DNA of 48,268 nucleotides, from contig JAGXOI010000001.1 of assembly GCA_023659975.1 (NCBI GenBank), forward strand, positions 1 to 48,268, read 5' to 3'. A model generated the notes under the pieces. The model had not been told where the DNA came from and did no database searches. It worked only from the letters and a program-made list of their open reading frames with translations. Below are positions 4,551-47,162 of this stretch, in pieces; positions within the stretch are counted from its first letter, which is position 1, and every line of letters begins with the position of its first letter. The translations under genes and the position numbers were made by a program. Origin of the DNA: Candidatus Aenigmarchaeota archaeon LH_S4. GTDB taxonomy: Archaea > Aenigmatarchaeota > Aenigmatarchaeia > QMZS01.

Positions 4551-5630
4551 TTACTTAAATTTTCCTCTGAGTTTTTTCATAACGGCGGGCATTGTTGTAT
4601 ATTCCATCTCATCGTCGGGTAATCTGTGTGGCTGGAAAGGTCCATGCCTTCTCATGTAATCTGCAGTTTCACCAGATTTTTGTCTTGCCAAATCAAAAGC
4701 AGGGTCATCAAATAGGTCCTGATGTCCAATTATTTTTCTGTTTGTAACCTGAAAACCAACACCTATTACTCTTGGGGGTCCATCAAATCTTGTGCATCTT
4801 GCATTTCCTTGTGAAACTGGAGTAAAAGGTCCATTATGTGAGCCCCTCATCCATCCAGAAACTAAGAAGGGAAAAGCAAAAGGTTCAAGAACTTCTCCAA
4901 CTGCTGGAAAACCACTCTGTGCTCTGCAAACCATCACAGGGTCATCTTTACCAACATATCTTCCTGCCATCTGTGAAAGTTTTTGTGTTGAAGTTACCGA
5001 AGCAATATCTTTTTTCTTTGAGTACACCGCCTTTATTATATATCTACTTGGAGAGCCAATTAAAGCGAGTAAGTCATATATTTCTTCTGGTGAAGTTAAG
5101 TTAACTGTTTTTCCTGTTCTTGCATCTAAAACTTCGAAGATAAATCCATCATGCATGTGTGGATCTATTACCAAACCTGCTGTATTAAAAGGGTCTGCAA
5201 AAATTTTATACAAAGGCAAATTCCACGCTCCAGATTCTGTCTTATCAGCCATAAAAACCAAGACAGGATCACTCTTTCTCTCTTCAAATTCCATTTCAGC
5301 AACTCCAGGACCCATTCCTTTAACATTACCGGAAAAAGCACTTTTCAGTAAATCCTGACCTGCCCCATAATATTTCTCTTTTTTTGAAATTTTATCTGTC
5401 AAACCCTCAAAAACATTCCAGGCCAATTTATGAATCTCTTTATTGTTAACCCCTTTACCATGAGTCATTATCAATTCTAAATCATCTCCACAATGAGTCA
5501 CATAGGAGTCATTGATTACCCTTGACTTCTTTAGAATCTTTTTTGCATTGTCAATTAACTTCTGGTTACAGGTTGAATGTCCAGGACAACCACCGATATC
5601 CGCTTTTATTACAGAAACACTTGTTTTCAT
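4551..5630 (-). CDS. fbp: Fructose-1,6-bisphosphate aldolase/phosphatase (class V FBPase)
   Basis: The N-terminus MKTSVSVIKADIGGCPGHS and the ~360 aa length are typical of archaeal FBP aldolase/phosphatase. Confidence 0.9.
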   Translation of the reverse strand: MKTSVSVIKADIGGCPGHSTCNQKLIDNAKKILKKSRVINDSYVTHCGDDLELIMTHGKGVNNKEIHKLAWNVFEGLTDKISKKEKYYGAGQDLLKSAFSGNVKGMGPGVAEMEFEERKSDPVLVFMADKTESGAWNLPLYKIFADPFNTAGLVIDPHMHDGFIFEVLDARTGKTVNLTSPEEIYDLLALIGSPSRYIIKAVYSKKKDIASVTSTQKLSQMAGRYVGKDDPVMVCRAQSGFPAVGEVLEPFAFPFLVSGWMRGSHNGPFTPVSQGNARCTRFDGPPRVIGVGFQVTNRKIIGHQDLFDDPAFDLARQKSGETADYMRRHGPFQPHRLPDDEMEYTTMPAVMKKLRGKFK

Positions 5631-7701: not shown

Positions 7702-9720
7702 TTAGGCAGGGGGAGCCATCCCTACTTTTATCATTTCCAAAAATGGTGCAAATATCATTAGTGAAATAACAGAAACTGCGATATAAATCAGTCCCCCAAT
7801 AATCAAATTTTTTGAAATATTATTGTGTAGGGTTGTTTTGTCAACCCCAACCTGGATCCCGGTCATAAACCAGGAAAGAATCATTATTGTTTCAAGAGCA
7901 TAGAAACCTATAGCCAGCTGAAATGTTGCTGGAGAAATAGTAAGACCCTCCCACATAGATAAAAAACCTGTATAAGCTGCAGTAGAGCCTTCAACTGATA
8001 TTCCACCAAAGGCTTTTTCCAGAAAATTTACCATCTCAATAATCATATAGGTTAAAGTATTCATAATTCCACAAATCAAAGGTAATAAAATTCTTCCCTG
8101 CATCTGCATGCTTGAAACTACTTCTGAAAACTTGTCCTGAACTGCTTCTTGTGTCTTGTGAAGGTTAGTTAGATATTTGGAAATGGAAATCATTATCTGT
8201 GAAACAATTTTTGTTCCCTTATTTGCAGCGTCAATAACTGCTTTCAAAACCGAGTACATTAATTTTGAAGGAAAATAATTTATTGCTCCTTCCTTTTTAT
8301 CAAAAATTGCCTGCTCAGTAGTCATATTTTTGTATTTAATATTGGAAATAATATTCCTAAGTAAATTTATTGAGTAATTCCCTCTCAAGGTAGGCATTAT
8401 TTTTTCTATTGCAACCTCCAGAGGCACTCCCCTATCTATTTCCTGTCCTAACCCAAACAAAACTTCCCTGAATTCATCTTCCATCTCAATAATGTCTTTC
8501 CTAAATTTAATCTTCTGGAAAGAATTTAGCATGAAAAATATGGCAATTGAAATAAAAAAGCCCAAGATAACCACATAAGACTGTTTTAAGGATAAGGAGT
8601 AAAAATTAATATACCAATAATATAAAAAAGGGATTAAGATAATAATAGATGGTACATAAGATTTTATAAAAAAATTTCTTAATTTAAAAGTATTTTCCGG
8701 GGGTAAATCTGGATGTAAGGATAAGTCAGGTTCAGGTAAAGTTACCATTCTCTTGTCTAAAATATTTTTAATTATAAAAACTAACACAATTGGAAGTAAA
8801 ATATCATAAAATCCAAAAATCAAACCTGGTGGTATCTCCTGACCTAAAAAAATAGTCATTATTGGAAGCATTGTCAAAATCAGGGTTGGAAGTAAAATCC
8901 CCAAAGCGTTTATCATTGTAGCAGGGGTTTTCAACTTTAAAACATAAGAATTTGACTTTTCATTTAAAGAACTCAAAATAATCTCAACAGATTCATCCAA
9001 CAACTCAATCCTTCTTTCTCCGCTTGTGTAAAGAGAATATATAATTGAATTTATAGAATCAGCAAAAGCCTTGAAAGAATCTTTCCATCTCTGGGAAAAT
9101 GAGAGGAGAGCCTGTTCCATTGAGTTATAAGTTCCTATGTCTACATCCCACATCAATTTTTTCATGTCCAAAGCCAAAGGTCCTGTCAAGTTAGCAGCTG
9201 CAAATTTTAGTGCTCCCTCTAGATTTGGAAAATTCCTCATGTAAATTACAATGTGCAAGATCAACATTACAATTTCTGAACCTGCTCTTAATTCATAAAT
9301 TTTTTTGAGTCTGAGTGGATAAGAGTATAAATAATAAGCAAAGGCAGCAATAATAGAAATACAAATAATACCTACAAGCAAATCCAAAAATCCGAATAAA
9401 ATCAAAAAGAGAGTAGCAAGACAAAAAGACATTGCAGCTAATATTGTAAGAGAGGCAACTCCTTTTGGGGTAACCTTTAAATGAGCAAAACTAATTGCTT
9501 CTTCTATCTCCTTTTTTGTTGTCTTATCTGGTTCTACTGGTAAAATTTTCTCTGAAATATGAGTCAACTTCTCATAGATTGTTCTTGGGATTGTTGACAA
9601 TTTCTCTTCTTCCTGAAAAACAGCATATTGGAGTGATTTTATATCTTCTTTCGGTTTTGATGGGAACCGAATTCTTTCTTTCTTTTTTTTAAATTTGATG
9701 AAAAAATCAAGTAGTCCCAT
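7702..9720 (-). CDS. Polytopic membrane protein with T2SS-F-like (PilC/TadC/ArlJ) platform domains
   Basis: Many TM helices. Two cytoplasmic helical segments fit the T2SSF pattern (e.g. GLGQEIDRGVPLEVAIEKI...YFPSKLMYSVLKAVIDAANKGTK). The start is set at MGLLDFF (9720) to avoid overlap with the divergent gene. Confidence 0.5.
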   Translation of the reverse strand: MGLLDFFIKFKKKKERIRFPSKPKEDIKSLQYAVFQEEEKLSTIPRTIYEKLTHISEKILPVEPDKTTKKEIEEAISFAHLKVTPKGVASLTILAAMSFCLATLFLILFGFLDLLVGIICISIIAAFAYYLYSYPLRLKKIYELRAGSEIVMLILHIVIYMRNFPNLEGALKFAAANLTGPLALDMKKLMWDVDIGTYNSMEQALLSFSQRWKDSFKAFADSINSIIYSLYTSGERRIELLDESVEIILSSLNEKSNSYVLKLKTPATMINALGILLPTLILTMLPIMTIFLGQEIPPGLIFGFYDILLPIVLVFIIKNILDKRMVTLPEPDLSLHPDLPPENTFKLRNFFIKSYVPSIIILIPFLYYWYINFYSLSLKQSYVVILGFFISIAIFFMLNSFQKIKFRKDIIEMEDEFREVLFGLGQEIDRGVPLEVAIEKIMPTLRGNYSINLLRNIISNIKYKNMTTEQAIFDKKEGAINYFPSKLMYSVLKAVIDAANKGTKIVSQIMISISKYLTNLHKTQEAVQDKFSEVVSSMQMQGRILLPLICGIMNTLTYMIIEMVNFLEKAFGGISVEGSTAAYTGFLSMWEGLTISPATFQLAIGFYALETIMILSWFMTGIQVGVDKTTLHNNISKNLIIGGLIYIAVSVISLMIFAPFLEMIKVGMAPPA

Positions 9721-9743
9721 AAATCTATTTAGATATTGAATAT

Positions 9744-10415
9744 ATGGAAGTAGTCTGTTTATCTTCTGGAGGGAAAGACTCAACTTTTGCTGCTTATTAT
9801 GCAAAGCAAAAGAGTAAATTAAAATATTTAATCACAGCAAAGCCAAAGGAAGAGAGCTATATGTTTCATTATCCAAATATTGAACTAACAAAAATTCAGG
9901 CCAACTTGATGGGTGTCAAACAAATTTTCTATGAAAGTTGCAGTGAAAAAGAGAAAGAAGTAGAGGAATTAAAACAAGTTATTTCAAAGTTAAAAATTGA
10001 TGGAATTATAGTAGGGGCAGTTGCTTCAGAATACCAGAAAAAAAGAATTTCAAAAATAGCAAAGGAATTAAATCTGAAATTAATAAGTCCTCTCTGGAAA
10101 ATAAATCAGGTTGAATATTTAAAAAAATTGATAAGTTTAGGTTTTAAAATAATAATTACTAGGGTGGCTGCCGAGGGTTTTAGTAAAGACTGGCTTGGAA
10201 GGAAAATCGATGAAGAGTGTTTAAAGGAATTAATTAAATTAAACAAAAAATATAAAATAAGTGTTGTTGGGGAAGGAGGAGAATATGAAAGTTTTGTTCT
10301 TGATTGCCCTATTTTTAGTAAAAAAATTGAAGTTGAAAAAAGCAGTAAAATTTATGATGAAAAAAACCACTGTGGAAGATTGGATATAGAAAAAGTCAGG
10401 GTGCTTAAGAAGTGA
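9744..10415 (+). CDS. PP-loop ATP-binding protein, diphthine-ammonia ligase (Dph6/MJ0570 family)
   Basis: SSGGKDS PP-loop and GEGGEYESFVLDCP motif. Confidence 0.75.
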   Translation: MEVVCLSSGGKDSTFAAYYAKQKSKLKYLITAKPKEESYMFHYPNIELTKIQANLMGVKQIFYESCSEKEKEVEELKQVISKLKIDGIIVGAVASEYQKKRISKIAKELNLKLISPLWKINQVEYLKKLISLGFKIIITRVAAEGFSKDWLGRKIDEECLKELIKLNKKYKISVVGEGGEYESFVLDCPIFSKKIEVEKSSKIYDEKNHCGRLDIEKVRVLKK

Positions 10416-13061: not shown

Positions 13062-13140
13062 TTTATATAAAGAAAAAACAAATATCTTAATGAACAAAAA
13101 ACCTTTATATAAAGAAAAAACAAATATTTTAATGAACAAA
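13062..13140 (+). promoter_or_regulatory. Tandemly duplicated TATA-box-plus-start-codon module of the giant gene
   Basis: The 37-nt unit tttatataaagaaaaaacaaatat(c/t)ttaatgaacaaa occurs at 13062-13098 and 13104-13140, with a 42-nt period and one mismatch. In each unit TTTATATAA sits ~25 nt upstream of an ATG. Confidence 0.5.
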
Positions 13141-16100
13141 GTTTCATTGTTTGTCTTGGCACTTTTTATACTTTCATTACCTGTAGGTTTAGCTTCTGAT
13201 AATCTTACTTTTAGTGAAGAACAGTCTCTTCGTGATTTAAATTTAAAGGGGATTAGTCCTGAACATTTTGTTACTTTAGGGGATACAAAGGAATTAGACT
13301 TTAGTTTAGATACTTCGGATTGTAAATTATATAAAATAAAAAATTTTGATTATGTTAAAGTTTCTGATTTAAAACCATCAACAGCTCCTGGAGAGCCACA
13401 ACTACCAATGAAAACTTTTGTGGTTAAGTTGCCTTTAAATTCTACAGTCAGTGATGTAAATATTACATCTGGAGAGTTTGTAAAAATTAAAAATAAACTA
13501 AACATTGCACCAACACCTGAGCCCTTAAAATGGCATCAAGGAGTTCAACAAAAAATAGAATATAATCCAGACGAAGATGTTTATAGCTCAGAAGAAAATT
13601 TTACAGGGAATGCGCTTTCTTATGAGGTTGGCAAGGATAACCATAATACTTATGTTTATGTTAGGCTATACCCTCTACAATATAGTCCGAAAAAGAAAAA
13701 AGCTATTTTGATAACTAAGGCTAATATAAAGGTTTATTATTCTGAAGGTGAAAATTTTTTTTATTCCTCTCAAAACTCTTATCAATCCTCTTCGGATGGT
13801 TCTGAGGCTATTATCATAACACCACCAGAATTTTATAATCAATCCTTGGAATTAGCAGATTTTCATGAACAACAAAATGAATCAATAAACACAACGGTTA
13901 TTAACACAACCTGGATTTATGCTAATTATAATAACACCATTGATCCACCCATTGAGGGTTGTGCTGATGGCTGTGAAGATTTGATTTCAAAGGGATATAA
14001 TTACACTCTTGCAAAAAGAATAATTGCTTTCCTAAAAAATGAAACTACTACAAATCAGAATTTAAAATATGTTACTCTTTTTGGAAATACACTTTATGTA
14101 CCACCAAGCTATTATGTAGATAACTATATTGTGACTGATTTCTTCTATTCATCTCCAGATTATGATGCAACTGACATAGATCCAACTCCAAATTATATGG
14201 TTGGTAGGCTACCAGTTGATAATGAAACAGAAGCAGAACACGTAGTCCAGAAGATTATTAATTGGCGGGGTAACTTGAGTGAAGAGTGGTTTAATAACTC
14301 TGTGGTTGCTGGTGGCAAACCATTTGGAACCTCACTTTATATGGGAGAACTGATTATCACAGATGCAATAAATAAAGGATATTTCAATGGAATGAATATA
14401 ACCAAGCAATTCAGAACTGATAATAATTTCAATAAACAAAATATGAGTGATACTCTTTCTAGTGGCAATACTGGTTTTATTTATCATATTGGTCACGGGG
14501 GTGGGAATGGAATGGAATTAAAGAGAGGCCCAGAAAATAGAATATATGTAGAAGATGTGATGAATTACTCGGAAAATCCAAATACTTCTATCTTAGTTTC
14601 GATAGCTTGTTCTAATGGTCAGTACGATATAGATATATTTGGTGGTATTTATGGTGATTATAATAAATCATTTGCAGAAGGAGTTTTGCTTTCAAAGGCG
14701 GGATCAGTAGCGTATATAGGTGGAGCAAGAACTAACTATGGTTATGTAGATAGCTACTTAGATAAAGGGTATTTGATACCTATCAAAGAGTACTGGATGG
14801 CAGGAATGCTAACTAATGTATTCAAAGCATATTCTGAAGGAGGAAGTACATTAGGAAATATAACAACAGAGGCTATGAAAAGTTATTATGAGAATAACAC
14901 AATTACAGGCATTGATAAATTAACATTCTTTGAGTTTACTTTGTTAGGAGACCCTGCATTAAAAATACCAGCAAAGGGAGAAGGAAAAAGTTATCAGCAA
15001 CCAAATTTGACTGCAGTAAGCCCAGATTTCTATGAGAATATCACATGGGGTATGGAAACTCCGATATATAATTTAGATACTGGAGAAAGTGTAACAGTTA
15101 ATTCTGAGACAAATTCATCAATTGAGACAAAATTAATCAATACAAAGAAATGGGAAAATGAAACCATAAATAGAACTCAAAATCAGTTTGATTACACATT
15201 TGTACCTCCTGAAAATTCATTGTATTTGATAAGAACAATTTCAGATGATGAAAAAGAAGGTTGGTTATATACTTACACTCAGTTTGTACCTGAAAATGCT
15301 AATTTGTATTTATCAACTCCTACAACTGTGAGAGAAGGTGATCAGGTTTGGATTCATGGTGAGGTTGAACCTAATTTAGCTATGAATTTTAGTGCAACTT
15401 TAATCTTTCCAAATGGAAGCCAAGAAGATCTTGGTTCCATTAATTCAAATCAATATGGTTGGTTTTACTTTAATTTTGGCACTCAAGGTTATTCCTCTGG
15501 AGAATATAAGGTTATAGTTCAAGGGCAATTGGAAGATTTATCTTTGGAGGGGACCGTCAAATTTAAGATATTAGATTATGATGAGCTTGAAATCTTACCT
15601 TTGACCTCAAAGAAGTTTAATACAACTAAGTGCAAGCAATATAATTTTAGTGAATGCAAGATTTGGCCAATAAAAACTACAGGAATAATTGACAACGATA
15701 CTTGCCAGCCTAATAACTGCGATATTTTAGAAATTTCTAAATCAGGAGAAGTTCACAATGCTACTATAGATACCCCAGATGGACTTAGACATATAGCAGT
15801 TGTTGATACAAATTACCCTAATACTTATGATATGGTTTTCATAGATGATGATTCTGTTTTCATGCAAACTTCTGGCCAAGAATTTAATATATCAGAGAAA
15901 GGATTCTTAACTGAGGGAAGCATAGCTGGAGACATAGAAACAAAAGAAGGTGAAAAAATAGATATAAAAATTGCAAAAATAGCAAGAAATGGTAGTTCTA
16001 TTTTGTTGATAACACCTCCAGCTAGAGATGAGATTCCTTATGATAGAGATGATGAGGTTAATTTTGTGGTTTTAGCTTTAGATAGTGGAAATCCAAAGGA

Positions 16101-19100
16101 GGGGATTAGTGTCTATCCAGAGTACCACTATCAAGGTAATTATCCATATGTCTATTCTCAATTATCAAATTCTACAACGGATGAGTTTGGTTTAAGTTCA
16201 AGTTATTCTTTCCCTGTTTACAAGACAGGGATTTATAGAATAGACGTGAATGAAGAATGGTCTACTACAATTAAAGTAAGACCTCCTTTTGATACTAAAT
16301 ATTCTATAAAAGATGTTGATACTGAAAAAGAGAAATCATTCTTCAAGCGTGGAGATAAAATTAAGTTTGAAGTTTCTGCTAAGGATAGACAAAGTGGTTC
16401 TTTAATATCTCTCAAAAAGGTTTACCTTAAATTGAGAGACCCAGAAGGGAATCTTTATTCTGTAAGTATGGATGATACTACTGATAGTGACTATGTTTAT
16501 GAAGGAACTTATACTCTAGGAGAGAATGCACCTACAGGAAAATGGTCTGTTAATATAGAAGTTGAATCAGAAGAAGGAATCCGGGATTATGTTAGAACTT
16601 CCTTTGAAGTTAAGAGCTTTGAAGTCAAAACATCTAGTCAAGAAAGATTTGCACCAAATGAATCTGCCTGGGTTTTAGTTACAGCTGTAGAACTTGGATC
16701 TGGTGGAGATTACTATAAAATGCCTGAGTTTTATCCTATAGATGATCCTAATACAACAGAAATAGATGAATGTTCAAAAGATGAGTTAGGAAACTATAGG
16801 AATGTTATAATAAATTCTGTAAAGGATAAAGAAGGAAATAAGTTAGACATATCTAGTTGGAATATAACAAATGTTGAAACATTTTTAGAGGAACCTCCAT
16901 ATAACTCAAAGTATTTTCAAGAATTTGAGCAGCATACAACTGAGTTACCAGATTCTTTCTTGAGACAATGTGTGATTCAATTTAATGCTCCGGTTAAGCA
17001 AAGTGTTTATTCTGGTGATTTGAATGTTAAAAGAGCTAATGTTGATGAAAGGGAAACAGGAAGCTTTATGTTTTCTGTTCAAGTAATAGATGCCTGGGCA
17101 TATCCTTGGGATCCAGATGAAGGCTGGAAATGGGCATCCTCCCCAGGTAGTAATGTGACTTTGAAACTTAATGCATATGATCTATACAATCAGAAAAGAA
17201 TTCCTATATCAGATATAATAGATGCAAAAATAACAGAGATTAGGGGGGAGCAGGGTGTAGTTGATATTTTAAATCAAAGTTTTGTTAAAAATCTTAATAC
17301 TAGTAACTCCTATGCTTTACTTAACTTTATAGCTCCAAATCAAACAGGTTGGTATAATGTTAAGTTTATGCTAACTGCTCAGATAAATGAGTCAGGAACT
17401 TTGAAAAATGAAACTGGCTTGGGTAGAGGATGGTTTTCTGTAAGGCTGTATGATGTTTGGGGTTGGACCGAAAAAAGGAGATATTCAACAAACGATTCTG
17501 TTCCAATAAATGTTACAGTAAGAGATTTTTCAGGGAATCCTGTATCAAATATTAACATAGAAATTGAGGAAGTGACAAATCGGAAGACAAGGGAAGATTA
17601 TACAGATAAAATAATTTGGGGATCAAGCAAAACTAATTCAAATGGAAAAGCTACTATAACTCTAGAACCAAACAGAACTTGGAAGAAAGGTCGATATAGT
17701 GTTAAATTAAAAGCAATAGACTCAGAAGGAAGATACGAATATGGCCGGGCTGGATTCGAGGTTAAAAATTATAGAGTTTCAGTCAAAAGGTTAGTTAATG
17801 GAGACCAGAAGTGGAAAATTTTAAAAGGAGACAACCTTACATTTATTCCTTTGGTATGGAAAGTTTCTCAGGGATGGGATGAGCCACCACTGAACTCTTC
17901 TCATTATTCAATCAATCTTGATGAATCTGTTTTGAATTATTATGGAAGTGGATGGTCACGCAGATATGAACCAGAAAAAATCAAGTTTACTGAGTTGAAT
18001 GCAACTCCTTGGAACAAAACTTATGAAGGAATTAATTTTCGTGCAGTCAATATTTCTACAAACAATAGTTTAATAAAATCTGGTAATTATGAAGCATCAA
18101 TTAAATTGAATATCGATGGAGAAGAAGAGATAGGGGAAAGTTGGCTTAATATAAGGGCATTTGAGCCTGATGCAAAAGTTTTACAAAGGGTTTATGGACA
18201 GGGTGACGAGGCTAGTATAAATGTTTCTGTAACACCAGAGCAAGAATTTAATGTAACTTTGAAGGAACTAGAGGGTGGTTATAGATATGAATATTCAGAG
18301 GTTGATATAAATGCAACAACCTTAGAATGTAATAATAGTTGCTTGTATAACTTTAGCTTACCTACAGATATTAAAGAAGGTTGGTATCATGGAACTTTAA
18401 AATTCAGCATTGGTGAAGATGTAGAATATGAAAGGATTTGGTTTGATGTAAAGAGCCTGGAATTAACTCCTCCTAAATCTGTTAGGGAGAATTTATGGGA
18501 AAAACTAACAAATAAAACTTATATTCATAGTTATGTATATCCAACAAGTCCTTGTTCAGAAATAGGTTATAACTTGACCCTACCACCAGAAATTGTAAAT
18601 GATTCTTGCAGTTTATTAAATTCTACTTTAACTCAAAGTAGAAATATAGGAATTCCAAGGAATGATTATTTAATATTGATAGATAAAGATACAAATAAGA
18701 TTTACATAGATACAAACTCTGACTTCACAGATGGTAACATAACTTATAATTCAACGATAAATGATACATTTACTGATGCGGAAGGCATAGAATGGGTTAT
18801 AAAAGAAATTAACTATTATGGTTTGGAATTAGAAGCAAAAAATGCTTTAAACAATGGAATAAAGGTCAACTTAAGTTTATCAAAATCTGGTGAGTTTAGA
18901 TTTGGTAGGTTTAATGAATCCAGATTTGGAGGATATTGGTCTAAAGAAGAAAAAATAGACTTAAACAATAATGGAAAACAGGAGAATATTTACTTGTTAG
19001 CTGTTGATACCCAAGAATCAGGAGCTTATGATGAAATTTTTGTGGAATATAATGTAACAGATCTTTCAGATAAAAACCTAACTTCAGTCGGCTCAACTAC

Positions 19101-21153
19101 TGATCTTGGCACTCCTATTTATATCATAGAATTAACAAAAACAACTTATGGGAACTTAAGAGCTTATTTAGCAATACCAGAAGCAGGAAATCATTATCCA
19201 TGGTTTGGAACAAGAAGAACTAACACTAATATAACATTCCCTGTTTTACTTACTTATCCAAATGGAACTGCTATCCAAGGAGCAAATGTTTCTATTTACA
19301 AAGTTATATTAAGAAATTTAGAAACAGAAGAATTAGAGGACTCTACTATAAAACTGACAGACAAAAATGGAATTGCTATCTTTACCTACAATCTAACCAA
19401 TTCTGGAGACTATACTATAATACCAGAAGCCCAAGTTGAGGATAAACAAACTATAATGAAAAGATGGACCTCTCCACATGTTGAAGCTAAAGCTTTCCGT
19501 ACCTGGAGTGATACTTATTCAAAGCTTGCTGAGTTAAGTGACTTTGAAGAACAAACACCAACTAAATTAGAGACAATCCGATTCCCAAGGCAGGGCAGAG
19601 AAGTTTATCTAAAGAGGAATAACTCAGATGTTACTCCACCAGATGGAGTAATAGATTATTACGCTGATTACACTGAGATGGATGAGGATAAGTGGTGGTT
19701 TTTGATTGATAATAATACAGAAAGGATTTACGTAGATAACGATGCTTTATTCAATGAATCAGATGATTCAGAAATGCAAGAAATTAATATTAGTGATGAC
19801 TTCTGGCTTAATTGGACAGAATCTGGATATAACCTAACCTTTAAATTATTAAGCAGACCAGATAAAGATAGAATTGTTTTTGGGTTTGAGCTTGGAAAAT
19901 ATAAAGGCAGGAGTTTAAATTTGAGTGGAAATTCAAATATAACAATAAATAATAAGCAATACAAATTTATATTGAATAATATAACATCAGAAAATCAAGC
20001 GAACTTAACTGTTATAGACTTTAAAAATAACAGCAGAACTAGAATAGTTTCAGAAGGAAACTGGAAGTTATTCTACCCACTCAACATTTATGTTGAAAAC
20101 ATTACTCTAGATAACATAGATATATCAATAAGTACAGGAGATTTGGAAATAGCAAATTATACAGATAATAATCTTGTAGTTTTGGATAACACCACCTATC
20201 CAAATGGATTTGATTTAAGTAGGTGGAGTGGGGTATCTTATGATACAGTTTTAATTTCAACAACTGGAAATGCTACAGAATTACATCCTGGAGATGAATG
20301 GCTAAACACTGGAGAATATGTTTCAGCAATTAGCAGACGGGGAGATAATATAATATTGTTGAACGGAACTAAAGTTTTATACCCACCAGAAACTGGATCG
20401 GACTATCTTGTTAAGCACATTAATGAAACAAGTTTAGGAAGTAATGGAACTGACCTAAATGAAGATGGAGATTTAGGAGATGAGTTTTACTTTGTGATTT
20501 ACGATTCTCCTTGGGATGATGTAACCGAATATACAAGAATGATAGTAGATGATGATAATGATTTGCTTTATAGTTGGCTTCCAGTAGATTTTAAAGGTAA
20601 TGAAACTGGTGTAAGAGAAGACATAACAAGTTTGCCAAGTGATTACGTGTGGACTTTGGGATCTAGCATATTCTTCAACAATCAAACAAATAATTTAACT
20701 TTATTAGAGGATAAATGGCGATTTGAACAAGAAGAGAATATAACTGTTTGGGTTGAAGCAAATGACTTTGATGGGTCTGCAATTAAAGGTAATTTAAGTA
20801 TTATTAAAATAAAAACCTGGGAGCAGGAGTTTAACGCTAGCGAAAAACTCAAAACAGAATTAGTAGATGGTTATGGTTTGATAACTGTAGCCCCACAAAA
20901 CTTTAAAAATGAAACCACTAATCGAACTAAATGGCCATCAGATTTCAGAATCATAGGAAATATAACCTCAACTGATGGAAGAGAAGAGATAATAACGATA
21001 TGGTCGGATACAGGTACATCATCAGTAGGCACTTCTGGTGGAGGTCTTGTAGGTACATCATCAGTAGGCACTTCTGGTGGAGGTGCTGGGGTATCTCCAG
21101 AATCTTCGTATAAAGTAACACAAACTAAAACATTTGAGGTTGGTAGAAAATGA
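13132..21153 (+). CDS. Giant secreted surface protein (2673 aa) with peptidase C25 (gingipain-like) domain
   Basis: A signal peptide (VSLFVLALFILSLPVGLA) follows the second ATG. His/Cys dyad motifs are YHIGHGGGNG and LVSIACSNGQYD. There are very many N-x-S/T sequons and a C-terminal GTSSVGTSGGG tandem repeat (2 x 39 nt, 21013-21090). Confidence 0.65.
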   Translation: MNKVSLFVLALFILSLPVGLASDNLTFSEEQSLRDLNLKGISPEHFVTLGDTKELDFSLDTSDCKLYKIKNFDYVKVSDLKPSTAPGEPQLPMKTFVVKLPLNSTVSDVNITSGEFVKIKNKLNIAPTPEPLKWHQGVQQKIEYNPDEDVYSSEENFTGNALSYEVGKDNHNTYVYVRLYPLQYSPKKKKAILITKANIKVYYSEGENFFYSSQNSYQSSSDGSEAIIITPPEFYNQSLELADFHEQQNESINTTVINTTWIYANYNNTIDPPIEGCADGCEDLISKGYNYTLAKRIIAFLKNETTTNQNLKYVTLFGNTLYVPPSYYVDNYIVTDFFYSSPDYDATDIDPTPNYMVGRLPVDNETEAEHVVQKIINWRGNLSEEWFNNSVVAGGKPFGTSLYMGELIITDAINKGYFNGMNITKQFRTDNNFNKQNMSDTLSSGNTGFIYHIGHGGGNGMELKRGPENRIYVEDVMNYSENPNTSILVSIACSNGQYDIDIFGGIYGDYNKSFAEGVLLSKAGSVAYIGGARTNYGYVDSYLDKGYLIPIKEYWMAGMLTNVFKAYSEGGSTLGNITTEAMKSYYENNTITGIDKLTFFEFTLLGDPALKIPAKGEGKSYQQPNLTAVSPDFYENITWGMETPIYNLDTGESVTVNSETNSSIETKLINTKKWENETINRTQNQFDYTFVPPENSLYLIRTISDDEKEGWLYTYTQFVPENANLYLSTPTTVREGDQVWIHGEVEPNLAMNFSATLIFPNGSQEDLGSINSNQYGWFYFNFGTQGYSSGEYKVIVQGQLEDLSLEGTVKFKILDYDELEILPLTSKKFNTTKCKQYNFSECKIWPIKTTGIIDNDTCQPNNCDILEISKSGEVHNATIDTPDGLRHIAVVDTNYPNTYDMVFIDDDSVFMQTSGQEFNISEKGFLTEGSIAGDIETKEGEKIDIKIAKIARNGSSILLITPPARDEIPYDRDDEVNFVVLALDSGNPKEGISVYPEYHYQGNYPYVYSQLSNSTTDEFGLSSSYSFPVYKTGIYRIDVNEEWSTTIKVRPPFDTKYSIKDVDTEKEKSFFKRGDKIKFEVSAKDRQSGSLISLKKVYLKLRDPEGNLYSVSMDDTTDSDYVYEGTYTLGENAPTGKWSVNIEVESEEGIRDYVRTSFEVKSFEVKTSSQERFAPNESAWVLVTAVELGSGGDYYKMPEFYPIDDPNTTEIDECSKDELGNYRNVIINSVKDKEGNKLDISSWNITNVETFLEEPPYNSKYFQEFEQHTTELPDSFLRQCVIQFNAPVKQSVYSGDLNVKRANVDERETGSFMFSVQVIDAWAYPWDPDEGWKWASSPGSNVTLKLNAYDLYNQKRIPISDIIDAKITEIRGEQGVVDILNQSFVKNLNTSNSYALLNFIAPNQTGWYNVKFMLTAQINESGTLKNETGLGRGWFSVRLYDVWGWTEKRRYSTNDSVPINVTVRDFSGNPVSNINIEIEEVTNRKTREDYTDKIIWGSSKTNSNGKATITLEPNRTWKKGRYSVKLKAIDSEGRYEYGRAGFEVKNYRVSVKRLVNGDQKWKILKGDNLTFIPLVWKVSQGWDEPPLNSSHYSINLDESVLNYYGSGWSRRYEPEKIKFTELNATPWNKTYEGINFRAVNISTNNSLIKSGNYEASIKLNIDGEEEIGESWLNIRAFEPDAKVLQRVYGQGDEASINVSVTPEQEFNVTLKELEGGYRYEYSEVDINATTLECNNSCLYNFSLPTDIKEGWYHGTLKFSIGEDVEYERIWFDVKSLELTPPKSVRENLWEKLTNKTYIHSYVYPTSPCSEIGYNLTLPPEIVNDSCSLLNSTLTQSRNIGIPRNDYLILIDKDTNKIYIDTNSDFTDGNITYNSTINDTFTDAEGIEWVIKEINYYGLELEAKNALNNGIKVNLSLSKSGEFRFGRFNESRFGGYWSKEEKIDLNNNGKQENIYLLAVDTQESGAYDEIFVEYNVTDLSDKNLTSVGSTTDLGTPIYIIELTKTTYGNLRAYLAIPEAGNHYPWFGTRRTNTNITFPVLLTYPNGTAIQGANVSIYKVILRNLETEELEDSTIKLTDKNGIAIFTYNLTNSGDYTIIPEAQVEDKQTIMKRWTSPHVEAKAFRTWSDTYSKLAELSDFEEQTPTKLETIRFPRQGREVYLKRNNSDVTPPDGVIDYYADYTEMDEDKWWFLIDNNTERIYVDNDALFNESDDSEMQEINISDDFWLNWTESGYNLTFKLLSRPDKDRIVFGFELGKYKGRSLNLSGNSNITINNKQYKFILNNITSENQANLTVIDFKNNSRTRIVSEGNWKLFYPLNIYVENITLDNIDISISTGDLEIANYTDNNLVVLDNTTYPNGFDLSRWSGVSYDTVLISTTGNATELHPGDEWLNTGEYVSAISRRGDNIILLNGTKVLYPPETGSDYLVKHINETSLGSNGTDLNEDGDLGDEFYFVIYDSPWDDVTEYTRMIVDDDNDLLYSWLPVDFKGNETGVREDITSLPSDYVWTLGSSIFFNNQTNNLTLLEDKWRFEQEENITVWVEANDFDGSAIKGNLSIIKIKTWEQEFNASEKLKTELVDGYGLITVAPQNFKNETTNRTKWPSDFRIIGNITSTDGREEIITIWSDTGTSSVGTSGGGLVGTSSVGTSGGGAGVSPESSYKVTQTKTFEVGRK

Positions 21154-25241: not shown

Positions 25242-26336
25242 ATGGAACTTCTCAAAAAATACAAACCAAAAAAAATTGAAGAATTTATTGGAAACAAGAG
25301 AGCAATAGAAGAAAGTCTGAAAAATTTCGGGAAAAAACCATTGCTTTTTTCTGGGGATCCAGGGGTTGGAAAAACTCTTTTATCTTATCTTATTGCAAAA
25401 AAACTCAACCTTGAAACTTATGAGATAAATGCTTCTGATTATAGGGATTTGGAAAGCCTTAAAAAAGTTTTGTTGATTTCAAAACAATATTCCCTACTTG
25501 GAAAGAAAAGAGTTATTCTAATTGATGAAATTGATGGTCTGTCTGTACAGGATAGGAGGGCAACAACAGAACTAATAAAAATTTTCAAGGAAAGCAAAAA
25601 TCCTATTGTATTAACTGCAAACAATGCCTATTCCCCAAAGTTAAGGAGTCTAAGATCCTACTGTAAATTAATTTCCTTCAGCAAGATTCCTTACCCATCT
25701 ATTACTAAATATTTGAGAGAAATCTGTAGACAGGAAAATTTAGACTATGAAGAATCCACTTTGAAAAATATTGCACAGAGATGTAACGGGGATGTAAGAG
25801 CAGCACTTCTTGATTTGAAAAGTTTAATTAAGGAAAACAAACTACTTCGGTCAGAAATACTTTCCCCAAGAGATTTTGAAGAGAACATTTTCAATTCAGT
25901 TCGTATAATTCTGAAAACAAAAAAAATAGAAGTAGCAAGGGATGTAATGAAAAATCTGGACAGAAATCCTGAAGATTTTTTCTGGTGGATTGAGGAAAAT
26001 GTTACAAGAGAATATAAAGGGAAGGATTTAAAAAATGGTTTGGATTTTTTAAGTCTAGCAGATATTTTCAGAAGAAGGATAATAAAAAGACAGGACTGGA
26101 TTCTGCTCAGATATTATGCAGATTTTATATCAATAGGGATTGCACTGGCAAAAAAGGAAACTTATTATAAATATGTTCCTTATGGATTTCCAACTTTTAT
26201 TTCAAAGATGAGTATGATGAAATCAAAGAAAAAAGAACTGGGAGAAAAAATTGGAAAACTGCAGGAAAAAATGCATTGCTCAAGGAGAATTATAAAAGAA
26301 GAATTACCTTATTTAGAACAGTTTTTAGATTTGTGA
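25242..26336 (+). CDS. rfcL: Replication factor C large subunit
   Basis: MELLKKYKPKKIEEFIGN..., Walker A GDPGVGKT, DEIDG, and the NGDVRAAL sensor. The track ORF start at 24978 is an antisense read-through of the methyltransferase gene. Confidence 0.8.
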   Translation: MELLKKYKPKKIEEFIGNKRAIEESLKNFGKKPLLFSGDPGVGKTLLSYLIAKKLNLETYEINASDYRDLESLKKVLLISKQYSLLGKKRVILIDEIDGLSVQDRRATTELIKIFKESKNPIVLTANNAYSPKLRSLRSYCKLISFSKIPYPSITKYLREICRQENLDYEESTLKNIAQRCNGDVRAALLDLKSLIKENKLLRSEILSPRDFEENIFNSVRIILKTKKIEVARDVMKNLDRNPEDFFWWIEENVTREYKGKDLKNGLDFLSLADIFRRRIIKRQDWILLRYYADFISIGIALAKKETYYKYVPYGFPTFISKMSMMKSKKKELGEKIGKLQEKMHCSRRIIKEELPYLEQFLDL

Positions 26337-26532
26337 ATTTGGTGTTTTTGTGGTGATAAATACCACATAGCTAAACCTTTTTCCAATGTTCTTCTCTAAA
26401 TTCCTATTTTTTTCCCAAATTACTTGCTGTTGATTTTCCAATCGTAAGAAGTTTTATATAAACTTTGGTTTCATTATCTGTTAAACCAATTTTTTGGGTT
26501 AATTTAGATTCTAATAGATATGCTGATTTGAG

Positions 26533-26607
26533 GTGTCGCAAGTGAAACTGCTAATTTTATCACTTTCGCAGTCTCGCCTTGCGAGTCAACCTTTTTTAAA
26601 GGCTGAC
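26533..26607 (-). ncRNA. Structured hairpin RNA module, copy A (23S 3' trailer)
   Basis: Minus strand reads GTCAGCCTTTAAAAAAGGTTGAC then TCGCAAGGCGAGACTGC-GAAAGTGATAAAATTA-GCAGTTTCACTTGCGA. It is homologous to 30466-30523 and 44601-44669. Confidence 0.5.
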
Positions 26608-26631
26608 AAGGAATAGAGTATCTATTTGTTG

Positions 26632-29705
<3,074 letters not shown>

Positions 29706-29902
29706 GCAACAAATAGATAATACTCTCCTTACACCTATTTTAATCATTGAGTACGAATAGATACTCTTTAGAAGATTTCTTAATATCAATAAGAAACCTT
29801 TCAACATAATATGATATAAAAGTTATATATAAGAAACCTTCACTAAAAACTTAGTTAATAATATCTAATATTGATAGATATTTACAGAATTAAACTAAAA
29901 TT

Positions 29903-30349
29903 ATGCAAGAGGTAATAGATAAAATCTGGAAAGAAACAACTCATTTTGGGAGCCTATGGTTTTATTCTTTTCTTGTTGCTTTGATGTTTATTCTTGGAGA
30001 AAAAATTTTATCTTTTCAATTGTTGGTAGGATTTGTTTTATCCTATCTAATTATAGTGTGTATAAGAGTAGTATATTATAAAGAAAGACCCAATAAACAA
30101 ACCTACAAAAGGTTTATTGAAAAAATATATGTCTCTTCATTTCCAAGTTTACATTCTATTAGAGGTGCAATGCTCTTTATATTTTTCTCACTCTATTACA
30201 ATACTTTATTAGTTTCCTTACTATTTCTTATTTTATCTCTTACAATTTTCGCGAGCAGATATTTCCTGAAAAAACATTATGTTTCAGATATTGTAGCAGG
30301 AGCAATAATTGGATTTCTATTATCTTATGGAATTATTTTGATTATTTAA
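29903..30349 (+). CDS. PAP2-family membrane phosphatase (polyprenyl-diphosphate phosphatase-like)
   Basis: Motifs KERP, PSLHS and SRYFLKKHYVSD, matching KxxxxxxRP / PSGH / SRxxxxxHxxxD. Four to five TM helices. Confidence 0.75.
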   Translation: MQEVIDKIWKETTHFGSLWFYSFLVALMFILGEKILSFQLLVGFVLSYLIIVCIRVVYYKERPNKQTYKRFIEKIYVSSFPSLHSIRGAMLFIFFSLYYNTLLVSLLFLILSLTIFASRYFLKKHYVSDIVAGAIIGFLLSYGIILII

Positions 30350-30412: not shown

Positions 30413-30753
30413 TGGACCTGGAGGGATTTCCAGAACCTTTTGATAACCAATATCCCTGTTTGGAGTGTCGCAAGGTGAAACAGCCAATTTTATCACTTTC
30501 GGTTTCGCAGTCTCACCTTGCAATTTGGCCCTTGCTAACCCATTTCATATTTGGGGTGCAGACCTTTTCATTTACTGCACCGAAAAGGGTTGCTTTTTAA
30601 AGGCTGACTTTGAACCCTCGGCCTCCGCCTGTTTTGGCTTGAGTTTTTAAAAGTCACACTTGCAAAGGCGGCATTCTACCAATTGCTCAAAACTACAATT
30701 TGAAAGCCTACCAAACTATTTTTTGTGTTGTAGTTTTACTGAACTACAGGCCC
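30413..30753 (-). tRNA. tRNA-Ala(UGC) with three introns: D-loop 30684-30738, anticodon 30630-30659, T-loop 30427-30608
   Basis: GGGCCTG TA GTTC AG[55 nt]ATTGGTA GAAT G CCGCC TTTGCAA [30 nt] GGCGG AGGCC GAGGG TTCAAA[182 nt]T CCCTC CAGGTCC A. The G3:U70 alanine identity pair is present. The gene is 341 nt for a 74-nt tRNA. Confidence 0.8.
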
Positions 30754-34228: not shown

Positions 34229-35365
34229 TTAAAATCGGGAGATTCTGAGATCGCACTCTGAACCACAAAAGCTTGCTGACTTCTTTATGTCCTCTGCCTC
34301 AGTTACGGGCTGTGCCAAAACAGCCCCTAGTTTAGACATATAGCCTAAACCTCGTTTGCAGATATTTATACTCCCATTTCTATCTGCATTTTCTTCTTCT
34401 TTACATTCAGGACACCAGAATAAACCTTGAGTTTTTCTAACTCCTTCATTTCCACACTTCCAACACAGTTGAGAAGTATAAGCTTCATTTACTTTGATTA
34501 CTGAAATTCCCTCCCAGTTCGCTTTGTATTCTATAAATTGAGATAGTTGATAGTTTGGCATAGAGTTCAACTTTCTGTTAAACTTCTTTCCTTTATAGTT
34601 TTTGTTATTCTTCTTTCTTGCTCCATTCTTTCTAATTCCTTTCAAATCACCAATTACTATTGCCGAATTTGTGTTTTTAGCCCAATCTATAATATCCTTT
34701 GCTGTCTTATGTACTTGATCTTTGGTTATTCTTTTTTCTTTATTGTTCTTTATTTTTTTGTAGAAACCTCTGATTTTCTTCCTTGCTAACTTCCCTCTCA
34801 AGTGGAAGTAGTGTCCTCTTGTTTCTCTGATATCCTTCCCATAGAACTTGGTTTTCTTGTTGGAATACTGCACCACGGACGCAATATTTTTTACTCCAAG
34901 ATCTATAGATAAGGTATCAGTATAATTTGTTTTTAATTCCTGTTCTTTTTGAACAGTTATATTTAAGAACCAGTCTTTTTTACCTTTGATTAACTTTGAT
35001 TCAGATGATTCATAATTCAATAAATCTTGTTGTTTGTTAGAAAAATTGATTGCAACCCAAATTGATTTATTATAAACAGGAACTCTTACCCAATATTTAG
35101 ATAGCTTGTTATCTGTTTTCTTAACTTTAATACAATCCTTCCTGATTATCAAAGGTTGTTCTTTTTTAGGTTTTGTTCTTTTTGCTAATCTTTCTACCTG
35201 TTGTTTTGTTGCTGAATAGAGTTTTATATCTTTGTATAATGGAAGAAAATCTACATCCTGCATTTTTAGGATACCCTGAAAATTAGAATATTCTCTCTCA
35301 AGTTTTTCTCTCTTAATATTGGTTGGTCTAATAATCTTGGTTTGAATTGTTTTTTGTAGTTTCAT
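34229..35365 (-). CDS. tnpB: TnpB (OrfB), copy 2
   Basis: 378 aa from MKLQKTIQTK. Near-identical to 5910-7052, with the same RuvC and zinc-ribbon motifs. Confidence 0.85.
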   Translation of the reverse strand: MKLQKTIQTKIIRPTNIKREKLEREYSNFQGILKMQDVDFLPLYKDIKLYSATKQQVERLAKRTKPKKEQPLIIRKDCIKVKKTDNKLSKYWVRVPVYNKSIWVAINFSNKQQDLLNYESSESKLIKGKKDWFLNITVQKEQELKTNYTDTLSIDLGVKNIASVVQYSNKKTKFYGKDIRETRGHYFHLRGKLARKKIRGFYKKIKNNKEKRITKDQVHKTAKDIIDWAKNTNSAIVIGDLKGIRKNGARKKNNKNYKGKKFNRKLNSMPNYQLSQFIEYKANWEGISVIKVNEAYTSQLCWKCGNEGVRKTQGLFWCPECKEEENADRNGSINICKRGLGYMSKLGAVLAQPVTEAEDIKKSASFCGSECDLRISRF

Positions 35366-35477
35366 AATTCTCAAGTAGTTTTCTGACAATATCCTCAAAT
35401 GTCTCTCCTTTCTTTCCCAATTTCTTTAACATATTATAGGTTGATTTCTTTAATTGTATAGTTGTTATAGTCACCAT
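35328..35477 (-). CDS. 49-aa antitoxin-like mini-protein overlapping the tnpB start
   Basis: Manual translation gives MVTITTIQLKKSTYNMLKKLGKKGETFEDIVRKLLENYETTKNNSNQDY. The pattern I.L...T...L..L...GE(S/T)F.D.I..LL resembles small archaeal putative antitoxins. Confidence 0.4.
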   Translation of the reverse strand: MVTITTIQLKKSTYNMLKKLGKKGETFEDIVRKLLENYETTKNNSNQDY

Positions 35478-40707: not shown

Positions 40708-41205
40708 TTAAGCAATCTTAACCTCAAAATTATCCTTTATAAACTGGATTGAGTCCTCAGAAGAAATCTGGTGTTTTTTCCCGATTTTTGTTTTTCCAAA
40801 CCCAGGCCTTCTCAAGGTAACACAAATATCAAGACCAAAAATCTGTATTTTAGGGTCATACTCTGCTCCTGGAATCTCAATATATTCTGGAATTCCAAAA
40901 GAGAATGTTCTTCCTGAGAAACAAGATTTATTTAATTTATTTTCTTTTGCTTTTATAAGTTTTGACAATAGTTTTTTTGCTTCTTCACGCCTAGTTGTAA
41001 CAATTACACCAATATCCCTGCCTTTGGCAACTCTAAAAGTTGTCCTTTTTTCTGTCTTTCTATAAACAGGCTTTCTGCCTGTTATTCTCTCCAAAATTGT
41101 TTTTGCGTTTTCTAAGTTTTCCCCAGGCTCCCCAACACCTATGTTTAAAATGACTTTTTCAATTTTAATTTCCCTCATCTTGTTCTCTTCAGATTTTTCT
41201 ACCAT
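40708..41205 (-). CDS. rpl5: 50S ribosomal protein L5 (uL5)
   Basis: MREIKIEKVILNIGVGE...ITGRKPV...FGIPEYIEIPG. Confidence 0.85.
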   Translation of the reverse strand: MVEKSEENKMREIKIEKVILNIGVGEPGENLENAKTILERITGRKPVYRKTEKRTTFRVAKGRDIGVIVTTRREEAKKLLSKLIKAKENKLNKSCFSGRTFSFGIPEYIEIPGAEYDPKIQIFGLDICVTLRRPGFGKTKIGKKHQISSEDSIQFIKDNFEVKIA

Positions 41206-41239: not shown

Positions 41240-41437
41240 TGCGGGAGGGGAGATTCCCGAAACTTGTTTTCTTTGAAGTGTTGGACTTTCTTTTTTTAAA
41301 AAGAAAAGCCTTATTCGAACTCCCGAACCGACTTACGGACAGAGTCCTAGGCCCTGCGCCTTTTTATGTAAACTTCTTCTTTTTGACCTAAAAGTTTTTC
41401 TTGAAAGAAAAAGCCTTGACCACTTGGCTACCCCCAC
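41240..41437 (-). tRNA. tRNA-Leu(UAG), type II, with two introns: D-arm ~41358-41415 (55 nt, junction ambiguous) and T-loop 41254-41313 (60 nt)
   Basis: GTGGGGG TA GCC AAGTGGTCAA GGC[intron]G CAGGG CCTAGGA CTCTG TCCGTAAGTCGGTTC GGGAG TTCGAA[intron]T CTCCC CTCCCGC A. Confidence 0.75.
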
Positions 41438-44523: not shown

Positions 44524-44798
44524 TGAGCCTGGGAGGATTTTCAAATTTTGTTTCTTTTTATCTTGAGTGACTTCATTCATTTTTGCATAGCAAAAATGAT
44601 GCACCGTTTTCTGAAAGAAAACGAGTGTTTTGTCACTTTGCTCCAATGCTCGTCTTTCAAACGGCACCCATTTTGCTCTGCAAAATCAGGAACCTCAACT
44701 AAAAAAGAAAAGCCTTACTTGAACCCCCAACACCTGGATCCGAAGTCCAGTGCTCTATCCAATTGCCCAAAACTGCAGTTTTATTGAGCTACAGGCCC
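44524..44798 (-). tRNA. tRNA-Arg(UCG) with two introns: D-loop 44764-44783 (20 nt) and T-loop 44539-44718 (180 nt)
   Basis: GGGCCTG TA GCTC AA[TAAAACTGCAGTTTTGGGCA]ATTGGATA GAGC A CTGGA CTTCGGA TCCAG GTGTT GGGGG TTCAA[180 nt]AT CCTCC CAGGCTC A. Confidence 0.75.
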
Positions 44799-46932: not shown

Positions 46933-47084
46933 GGCCGGAAGTGGGACTCGATTATACTAACCTTTTTATTATATAAAAAGATTTACCCACCCTAAGGGAT
47001 TTCCATGAACATGACTAAATAGGCTCTCCACAGTCCCCTATGCTAACCTTATAGAGCCAGAAGCTTAACTACACTATCCCGGCC
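46933..47084 (-). tRNA. tRNA-His(GUG) with three introns: D-loop 47049-47067, anticodon 47001-47027, T-loop 46952-46984
   Basis: G(-1) GCCGGGA TA GTGT AGT[19]GGTTA GCAT A GGGGA CTGTGG[27]A TCCCT TAGG GTGGG T[33]TCGAGT CCCAC TTCCGGC C. The encoded G-1:C73 pair is the hallmark of tRNA-His. Confidence 0.8.
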
Positions 47085-47162
47085 ATAAAAATACTTAAAT
47101 TATTTTACTCTTTATTTTTGTAGTTTAGTTTTATCCAATCCACCACCCACACAAATCCCCTT

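Follow-up and report, generated by a model that had tools for sequence, protein, structure and literature searches.

Two related hairpins lie in the ribosomal RNA (rRNA) region of Candidatus Aenigmarchaeota archaeon LH_S4 (GenBank assembly GCA_023659975.1, contig JAGXOI010000001.1, positions 1 to 48,268; this whole 48,268-nt stretch is called the window), one in the T-loop intron of a tRNA-Ala gene (copy B) and one in the 3' trailer of the 23S rRNA (copy A). A preliminary description made from the sequence had grouped them with a third hairpin, in the T-loop intron of a tRNA-Arg gene (copy C), as three copies of a single RNA module. Our analyses make it probable that A and B are a young hairpin insertion in T-loop-intron sequence that was subsequently duplicated, that C is an unrelated palindrome built from a different repeat, which we call R, and that all of these are excised or tolerated parts of stable-RNA genes rather than a new RNA gene. 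Nothing in these analyses supports a conserved RNA gene, or a new class of RNA, uniting A, B and C. Position numbers are those of the whole window, and the three copies are read on the minus strand.

Copies A and B and their host RNAs

Copy B, hereafter also hairpin 2 (30468..30523, minus strand), is a 17-bp stem, in which two of the pairs are G.U and one is U.U, closed by a loop of 22 nt that contains AAAGTGATAAAA, and the stem of copy A (26536..26584, minus strand) is interrupted by a 2/1-nt internal loop only. Folding energies were -21.8 kcal/mol for A and -23.9 kcal/mol for B (z around -5.5), and none of 200 shuffled sequences was as stable. Local alignment of the two gave a score of 68, compared with at most 24 among shuffles. 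The homology comprises three blocks, about 90% identical, and exceeds the hairpin itself: GTCAGCCTTTAAAAA is identical at 26593-26607 and 30594-30608, and on the 3' side the two loci have the flank ACACYYCAAAYCAG..ATAT in common. Exact matches to AAAGTGAYAAAA occur in the window only at A, B and C (0.11 expected per window), and the 12-nt loop motif is the same in A and B and agrees at 11 of 12 positions in C. We built a covariance model from A and B (R1) and ran it on the window with filters off, which returned A at 85.6 bits, B at 72 bits and no other match; in approximately 150 kb of DNA from relatives it returned orthologues of A and B only. These alignments mark A and B as true paralogues, probably the product of a recent duplication.

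The host loci are indeed two tRNA T-loop introns and the 23S trailer, as had been described, and every sequence quoted in the preliminary description lies on the minus strand where it had been placed. The tRNA-Ala(UGC) gene (30413..30753, minus strand), identified by reading of the sequence and by ARAGORN on the spliced sequence, has exons at 30753-30738, 30682-30661, 30630-30609 and 30426-30413, separated by three introns in the D-loop (approximately 30737-30683), at position 37/38 (30660-30631) and in the T-loop (30608-30427). The last of these corresponds exactly to the interval 30427..30608 originally singled out and is a bulge-helix-bulge (BHB) intron at position 59/60 with the junction GAGGG-TTCA-[AAG]...TGGA-[AAT]-CCCTC. 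As judged by eye, the BHB is stacked on the T stem GAGGG/CCCTC and has a 4-bp helix, TTCA/TGGA, with the 3-nt bulges AAG and AAT; the motif is of the relaxed kind because the outer intron helix is imperfect. The same geometry is seen in the T-loop introns of tRNA-Arg and tRNA-Leu in the window and of tRNA-Asn in a relative (L076). ARAGORN called no tRNA in the unspliced window, the tRNA-Ala gene included, and removal of the introns in silico gave clean cloverleaves for tRNA-Ala(TGC), tRNA-Arg(TCG) and tRNA-Leu(TAG). The first of these has G3:U70, the identity pair of tRNA-Ala.

Hairpin 2 is one of several parts of the tRNA-Ala T-loop intron. The 5' block of the intron, GTCAGCCTTTAAAAA (30594-30608, minus strand), is identical at 15/15 positions to the tRNA-Asn intron of L076, with which the 3' block, CGACACTCCAAACAGGGATATTGGT (30446..30470, minus strand), also aligns. 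The intron further contains a nested hairpin domain of 60 nt (30534..30593, minus strand), in which GCAACCC...GGGTTAGC surrounds GGTGCAG...CTGCACC; both of these additional hairpins, which had been noted before, are present in the minimum-energy fold, and the domain is unique to copy B's intron compared with copy A and the L076 intron. Copy A lies behind the 23S rRNA (29717-26621, minus strand, Rfam search), whose processing stem reads as a textbook 3-4-3 BHB formed by the leader strand AAGGA-GAGT-[ATT]-ATCTATTT (29711-29730, minus strand) and the trailer strand AAATAGAT-ACTC-[TAT]-TCCTT (26608..26627, minus strand). The copy A region starts right after this TCCTT: directly beyond the BHB outer helix comes a short hairpin (hairpin 1, GTCAGCC TTTAAAAAA GGTTGAC, 26585..26607, minus strand), the sequence of which is also the 5' start of the tRNA-Ala and L076 tRNA-Asn T-loop introns.

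Presence and absence of the hairpin in relatives

Sister strains and relatives were found through contigs encoding homologues of neighbouring proteins. Synteny with the gene for the large subunit of replication factor C (RFC) reached the 23S trailers of strains with 98% identical RFC and of one 82% relative, not those of relatives at 71-79%, and for tRNA-Arg synteny with the shikimate kinase gene reached only the 99% strain. All strains were compared through metagenome assemblies, where palindromes are liable to misassembly; each indel was seen in at least two contigs.

In the 82% relative (L082), RFC still adjoins the 23S rRNA gene, and the 23S and its BHB trailer align with the window up to ...TATTCCTT before they diverge. 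Its trailer has neither hairpin 1 nor hairpin 2 (fold z -0.8; no R1 match), and the motifs CTCCAAATC.G and TATTA are common to this trailer and the 3' flank of copy A. A second informative relative is L076, whose shikimate kinase is 78% identical and which belongs to the same metagenome-assembled genome as the RFC match at 79%. Its tRNA-Asn(GTT), canonical by ARAGORN once spliced in silico, has a 71-nt T-loop intron, GTCAGCCTTTAAAAAAGGCCGAC|ACCCCAAACAGGGATATTGGTCAAT...CGGAA, that consists of hairpin 1 and the 3' block. This intron is identical at 18/18 positions to the start of the copy A region and at 24/25 to the block after copy B (E 2.5e-6), and in the multiple alignment hairpin 2 corresponds to one clean gap in it. 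Because a family intron without the hairpin exists in L076, hairpin 2 appears to be a species-level insertion into the T-loop-intron family; A and B both carry it and would therefore both descend from one already-modified copy. By alignment, this sequence family occupies different tRNAs in different species and, in the present species, also the region behind the 23S rRNA. The T-loop introns of tRNA-Arg and tRNA-Leu, which are identical over their first 16 nt (16/16), look like diverged members. At the position of the window's tRNA-Arg, as followed by shikimate kinase synteny, L076 has no tRNA.

Scans for the loop and arm, made with strict patterns in collections that did not include this genome, gave 12 matches in the genome collection, all chance matches in bacteria, and 53 in the metagenome collection, none of which folds like the module.

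Divergence within the stem

The secure homologues that we compared are copy A, its counterpart in L072 (RFC 98% identical), copy B and its counterpart in L077 (the sequence of L077, L078 and L079). Of their 16 stem pairs, 10 never vary, 3 have changed on a single side and 3 are disrupted in at least one sequence; two-sided, compensatory changes number 0/16. The compensatory changes previously read between B and C came from a comparison of non-homologous stems: two unrelated hairpins had been aligned by their stems, with no independent demonstration of homology, and apparent covariation was the result. In L072, copy A has two loop substitutions (AAAGTGAT to AAACTGAT and another) and one A-U pair turned into A.C, and copy B of the window has U.U at a pair that is U-A in three sister strains. 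Divergence between the window and L072 was 4.0% in the trailer, 5.5% in the hairpin and 3.6% at RFC third codon positions (small counts in each case), suggesting that hairpin and trailer evolve no slower than RFC third codon positions.

Copy C and the repeat R

The tRNA-Arg(UCG) gene (44524-44798, minus strand; sequence reading, and ARAGORN after splicing), which also has a D-loop intron, carries copy C in its T-loop BHB intron at position 59/60 (44538..44717, minus strand; sequence reading and in-silico splicing). The proposed three-copy module stands as far as A and B are concerned, these being homologous and strong hairpins, but C resembles them at chance level. Its fold is weak (z -2.4), and the best local alignment between the tRNA-Arg intron and the tRNA-Ala intron or trailer is the 12-mer alone, which 20-34% of dinucleotide shuffles equal; permissive scoring gave p values of 0.04-0.7. 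R1 run on the window with filters off did not report copy C at E<=10. On these comparisons, C is a homologue of neither A nor B. In the strain whose shikimate kinase is 99% identical (L075), the tRNA-Arg intron is without the 54 nt at window positions 44574-44627, that is, the whole 3' arm of copy C, and the supposed loop motif sits there in a small hairpin, AGTGAC-AAAAA-GTCACT.

Both arms of copy C are copies of R. The 5' arm is the left copy (44645..44694, plus strand, antisense to the tRNA), present in all strains seen and also in L075 and L084, and the 3' arm is the right copy (44572..44629, minus strand), the one from which 44574-44627 is absent in L075. Copy C is palindromic because these two R copies lie head to head in the intron. 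A further copy lies within the 23S rRNA gene (28024..28081, plus strand, antisense to the rRNA), where it folds as two tandem hairpins and corresponds to a 53-nt insertion (28026-28078) private to the window strain, being absent in L072, L077, L078 and L079. The right copy in tRNA-Arg and the copy in the window 23S are thus two strain-private insertions of R, and no target duplication is clearly recognizable at R insertions, whose ends are ambiguous by 0-2 nt. We rejected a reading of the 23S insertion and the tRNA-Arg indel as circular permutations, the 23S copy being the reverse complement of R. A second 23S insertion, at approximately 27045-27081, puts about 34-38 nt in place of 4 nt and is likewise absent from the near-identical L072, L077, L078 and L079.

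R is a two-hairpin unit of about 55 nt (53-57) with the order (A)CACTCG, Y hairpin, CGGTGC and X hairpin (TTTTTGC NNN GCAAAAA). We aligned the 54-nt tRNA-Arg piece, the reverse complement of the upstream arm, the 53-nt 23S insertion and four L076 sequences. In this family two-sided changes affect 8/17 pairs, and pairing is kept in 88% of cells, above both shuffled and slid controls. A covariance model made from the aligned R sequences (R2) scored the left tRNA-Arg copy at 46 bits (E 1e-9), the right copy at 68.8 bits and the window 23S copy at 61.3 bits, and it retrieved copies outside the model in L082 (intergenic, 44 bits; 23S, 32 bits) and in an open reading frame (ORF) for class-I lysyl-tRNA synthetase (LysRS) of L076 (35 bits), as well as a weaker match in L003 and L005, two contigs with an overlapping region. 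In all, the window has three copies of R, L076 at least five, L082 two and the overlapping contigs L003 and L005 one each; R is also found in a tRNA-His intron. R2 finds no match at A or B, just as R1 finds none at C, and the R family is the only one in which true covariation was observed. The earlier inference of selection on structure holds to the extent that hairpin repeats under structural constraint do exist at these loci, but it finds no support for A and B, nor for one family spanning all three loci. A viral scan for R gave 13 pattern matches, 0 of which pass R2, and we found no description of R-like elements in DPANN archaea in the open-access literature.

Several other occurrences were noted. 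An R-like element at 9460-9565 of L076 (CACTCGTCGTTCCGACGGTGCA, followed by two A/T-rich hairpins) lies inside the class-I LysRS gene (8438-10066), where the insert adds 35 in-frame residues that the enzyme of the window does not have; either it is translated or it may be an intron removed from the RNA. The 23S copy of L082 (7458-7507) occupies another site than that of the window and is nested in a longer hairpin, one arm of which, CCCTTTTTTCGCTTCGCTC, recurs in the L082 23S trailer (5240-5290). The occurrence of CAGGGATATTGGT at 41008-41020 of the window is within coding sequence and was treated as chance.

Origin and fate of the hairpins

We propose that hairpin 2 arose as a palindromic insertion of about 50 nt between the blocks GTCAGCCTTTAAAAAAGG..GAC and ACAC.CCAAACAGGGATATTGGT that define the T-loop-intron family, and that the hairpin-carrying intron sequence was then duplicated within the rRNA region, so as to lie also directly 3' of the 23S processing BHB. 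The second copy may have come about through duplication of DNA or gene conversion in the rRNA region, or through transposition of intron-type sequence, and the direction of transfer between A and B is ambiguous, since the L082 trailer shares motifs with the 3' flank of copy A and the 5' block is that of the T-loop-intron family. In pre-tRNA-Ala, hairpin 2 would fold on itself and be lost together with the entire intron once the splicing endonuclease has cleaved both 3-nt bulges beside the TTCA/TGGA helix; in pre-rRNA, it would lie in the trailer cut off at the 23S BHB. Being removed with intron or trailer, the hairpin would cost the cell little and is presumably not needed. More generally, young hairpin-forming insertions would accumulate where stable-RNA genes are cut away, as in BHB introns and the 23S trailer, or where they are tolerated.

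Certain observations weigh against this account. The identical 12-nt loop motif and the long stem of A and B have been kept across four to five strains, and copy B has gained two stem pairs over A, through a C-to-U change and an inserted C, which may indicate a degree of selection for pairing. Between species whose proteins are only about 78% identical, the intron blocks on either side agree at 18/18 and 24/25 positions; some part of the intron family would therefore be constrained or recently mobile. The tRNA-Ala intron orthologues compared come from 99% strains only, and absence of the hairpin elsewhere was weakly tested, given the strict patterns and the collections lacking this genome.

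A broader reading, which we advance tentatively and regard as possible rather than probable, is that R, perhaps together with hairpin 2 and the T-loop-intron sequence, represents an undescribed class of Aenigmarchaeota hairpin mini-elements of about 50 nt. Such elements would be actively inserting into stable-RNA genes (23S rRNA, tRNA introns and rRNA trailers) and even into ORFs, and would persist where the RNA is excised at a BHB or where they are tolerated on the ribosome surface. If so, some inserts, for example the 105-nt in-frame insert in the L076 LysRS gene, might be removed at the RNA level, and the covariation in the R stems would reflect a hairpin, of RNA or single-stranded DNA, needed for propagation.

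A rather unlikely alternative is that hairpin 2 represents a small, non-autonomous mobile element in its own right, comparable to miniature inverted-repeat transposable elements (MITEs) or palindrome-associated transposable elements (PATEs) as R appears to be, which inserted into T-loop-intron sequence, A and B then reflecting its mobility or that of the intron. This overlaps with the insertion and duplication proposed above and differs in making the hairpin the active unit. It would account for the clean insertion of approximately 49-56 nt relative to the L076 intron, near the 53-57 nt of R, and it agrees with the strain-specific insertions of R in these genomes and with the presence of a TnpB-type ORF nearby. 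Copy A moreover has TGAC...CGAC around it, compared with just one CGAC in L076, which may be a duplication of 4 nt (YGAC), but the upstream TGAC is missing from copy B. Only two copies of hairpin 2 were seen, however, and because both lie in the same flanking blocks, one insertion followed by duplication of a larger segment suffices. No transposase partner was identified for hairpin 2, and no copies were found near the TnpB ORF.

We think it improbable that the hairpin is a functional structured RNA domain, protein-binding or regulatory, that may be released as a stable or circular RNA. The strength of the A and B hairpins, a loop motif identical in A and B and matching at 11/12 positions in C, and the location of both copies in RNA set free by BHB cleavage would fit such a role, as would the lack of a known family: the preliminary description could name no matching RNA class, and our Rfam searches at gathering and E-value thresholds likewise gave no family near threshold. 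Set against this, the secure homologues show zero covariation, loop and stem are altered in the 98% strain L072, and the hairpin is absent in L082 and L076; C, for its part, has no homology to A and B, and a 99% strain does not have its hairpin. Inspection of the sequence also revealed no C/D boxes, H/ACA pocket or tandem G.A pairs.

The known classes were considered individually. A C/D box small RNA (sRNA) needs a C box (RUGAUGA) and a D box (CUGA) joined by a terminal stem that forms a kink-turn (K-turn), plus C' and D' boxes; the loop offers only GUGAUAA (CUGAUAA in L072) with no paired D box, and the best Rfam C/D matches scored 15-17 bits compared with gathering scores of 38-70. In an H/ACA sRNA the hairpin opens into a large internal loop, the pseudouridylation pocket, and the ACA lies about 14 nt from the target site. 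Copy B forms one continuous helix of 17 bp, and the only internal loop in A is the 2/1-nt one. The stem is followed by an ACA, but a pocket is lacking; the H/ACA match in Rfam (19.9 bits, gathering score 45) falls on another part of the intron. For a K-turn or K-loop, the site of L7Ae, tandem sheared G.A and A.G pairs would adjoin the closing helix; the loop does start with GA, but its 3' end reads UA (A) or UG (B), not GA.

Least likely of all is that the same-sense palindromes of the two loci base-pair, the 5' arm of B with the 3' arm of A, in a long-range helix bracketing the 23S rRNA for processing, or act on the opposite strand as terminators of the convergent PAP2 and RFC transcripts before antisense read-through into rRNA and tRNA: B does lie upstream and A downstream of the 23S on one strand, each is 120-200 nt past the stop codon of a convergent plus-strand gene, and plus-strand T runs follow the hairpins, but local hairpins would form faster than a helix spanning 3.9 kb, the 23S already has a canonical BHB stem, no terminator-like site was called, a T7 run comes directly after the PAP2 stop, and L082, with the same RFC-23S arrangement, has no hairpin.

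Surrounding genes and further introns

The window is AT-rich (G+C about 31%). Homologues of the RFC large subunit encoded beside the rRNA genes bear the name Aenigmarchaeota or Aenigmatarchaeota wherever their source is named, which places the organism among the DPANN archaea. An archaeal 16S rRNA gene (32425-30873, minus strand, Rfam search) precedes tRNA-Ala, and tRNA-Ala is separated from the 23S by an oppositely oriented gene for a PAP2-family phosphatase (29903-30349, plus strand, Pfam E 3e-14), breaking up the usual 16S-tRNAAla-23S unit. A 67% relative (L081) retains the PAP2-23S order, without a tRNA-Ala there. Upstream of the 16S is a TnpB/Cas12f-like ORF (34229-35398, minus strand) with Cas12f1-like TNB and OrfB_IS605 domains, beside which we found neither a hairpin-2 nor an R copy. 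In L077, the spacer between 16S and tRNA-Ala contains a 436-nt insertion (8636-9073), directly after CCTAAAGTT, that partly repeats the promoter-like ATTGAGAAATTATAA; it gave zero Rfam matches and contains no convincing ORF. Just downstream of the 23S trailer, at approximately 26400-26500 (minus strand), is the remnant of a TrmB-like helix-turn-helix gene, probably a pseudogene, of which 40 codons are present in L072 (11186-11308) and which in the window is further disrupted by deletions of about 30 nt. Comparison of the window with L077 shows 2.6% divergence in the RFC gene (25242-26336), or 4.9% when only third codon positions are counted, whereas PAP2, tRNA-Ala and the trailer differ by just 0.2-0.8%; the low divergence of the latter suggests recombination among strains around the rRNA region. 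Elsewhere, a single ORF of 2687 residues occupies 13090-21153 (plus strand).

Other interrupted tRNA genes were found. A tRNA-Leu(UAG) gene (41240-41437, minus strand) is interrupted by one intron in the D region and another, of 60 nt, in the T-loop (41254-41313), and a tRNA like the tRNA-His of L076, with several introns, lies at approximately 46935-47085 (minus strand); ARAGORN misses both. The D-loop introns of tRNA-Arg and tRNA-Ala are homologous, the sequence being AAAACTGCAGTTTTGGGCAA in tRNA-Arg and the same hairpin, with 35 nt inserted in its loop, in tRNA-Ala.

Relation to known systems and implications

Short palindromic or miniature repeats include the bacterial repetitive extragenic palindromes (REP) and the bacterial interspersed mosaic elements (BIME) related to them, MITEs such as the SM elements of Sulfolobus, and the PATEs derived from IS200/IS605. 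The elements described here resemble REP and MITE repeats in being about 50 nt long, hairpin-forming and non-coding, and R does so further in its dispersed copies in both orientations, its presence and absence among strains and its compensatory stem changes. Unlike MITEs, R has no transposase link that we could find, the window offering only the TnpB-type ORF, and no clear terminal inverted repeats or target duplication; it has inserted into tRNA introns, an ORF and a 23S rRNA gene, among other places. Only two copies are known of hairpin 2, in contrast to such repeats.

Archaeal introns and spacers also encode small RNAs, among them the C/D box sRNA in the tRNA-Trp intron and stable rRNA-spacer RNAs. 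The hairpin is similar in residing in BHB-released RNA, and circularization would be possible in principle, but unlike those sRNAs it lacks C/D and H/ACA features, matches nothing in Rfam and is not conserved outside the species. Circular introns are known among archaeal intron-derived RNAs (PMC3326292).

A close parallel is with intron transposition. tRNAs with multiple, non-canonical BHB introns occur in several DPANN lineages and in Thermoproteales (PMC5829648), and near-identical introns in unrelated tRNAs are, in the summary of Fujishima et al. (2010) given in PMC4090602, the hallmark of 'intron transposition' in Thermoproteales. The tRNAs of the window likewise have several introns each, at non-canonical positions and with BHB-type junctions, and the tRNA-Ala intron of the window and the tRNA-Asn intron of L076 are near-identical (15/15 and 24/25 nt) in the manner of that report. 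The present case differs in its lineage, Aenigmarchaeota, in having one copy outside any intron, in the 23S trailer beside the rRNA BHB, and in introns that grow by nested hairpin insertions varying among strains that are 98-99% identical.

That the candidate RNA class was not upheld saves effort on L7Ae or other ribonucleoprotein experiments, and the apparently mobile R is a more novel lead than hairpin 2. The results also bear on how BHB introns evolve in DPANN archaea, where one T-loop-intron sequence would extend across tRNAs, species and the 23S trailer, and where introns grow by nested hairpin insertions that differ even between 98-99% identical strains. If R is truly mobile, it would account for the failure of standard annotation tools to find, or to size correctly, the tRNA and rRNA genes of such genomes, and it would offer a tractable case of the gain and spread of protein-spliced archaeal introns, a question that has long been open.

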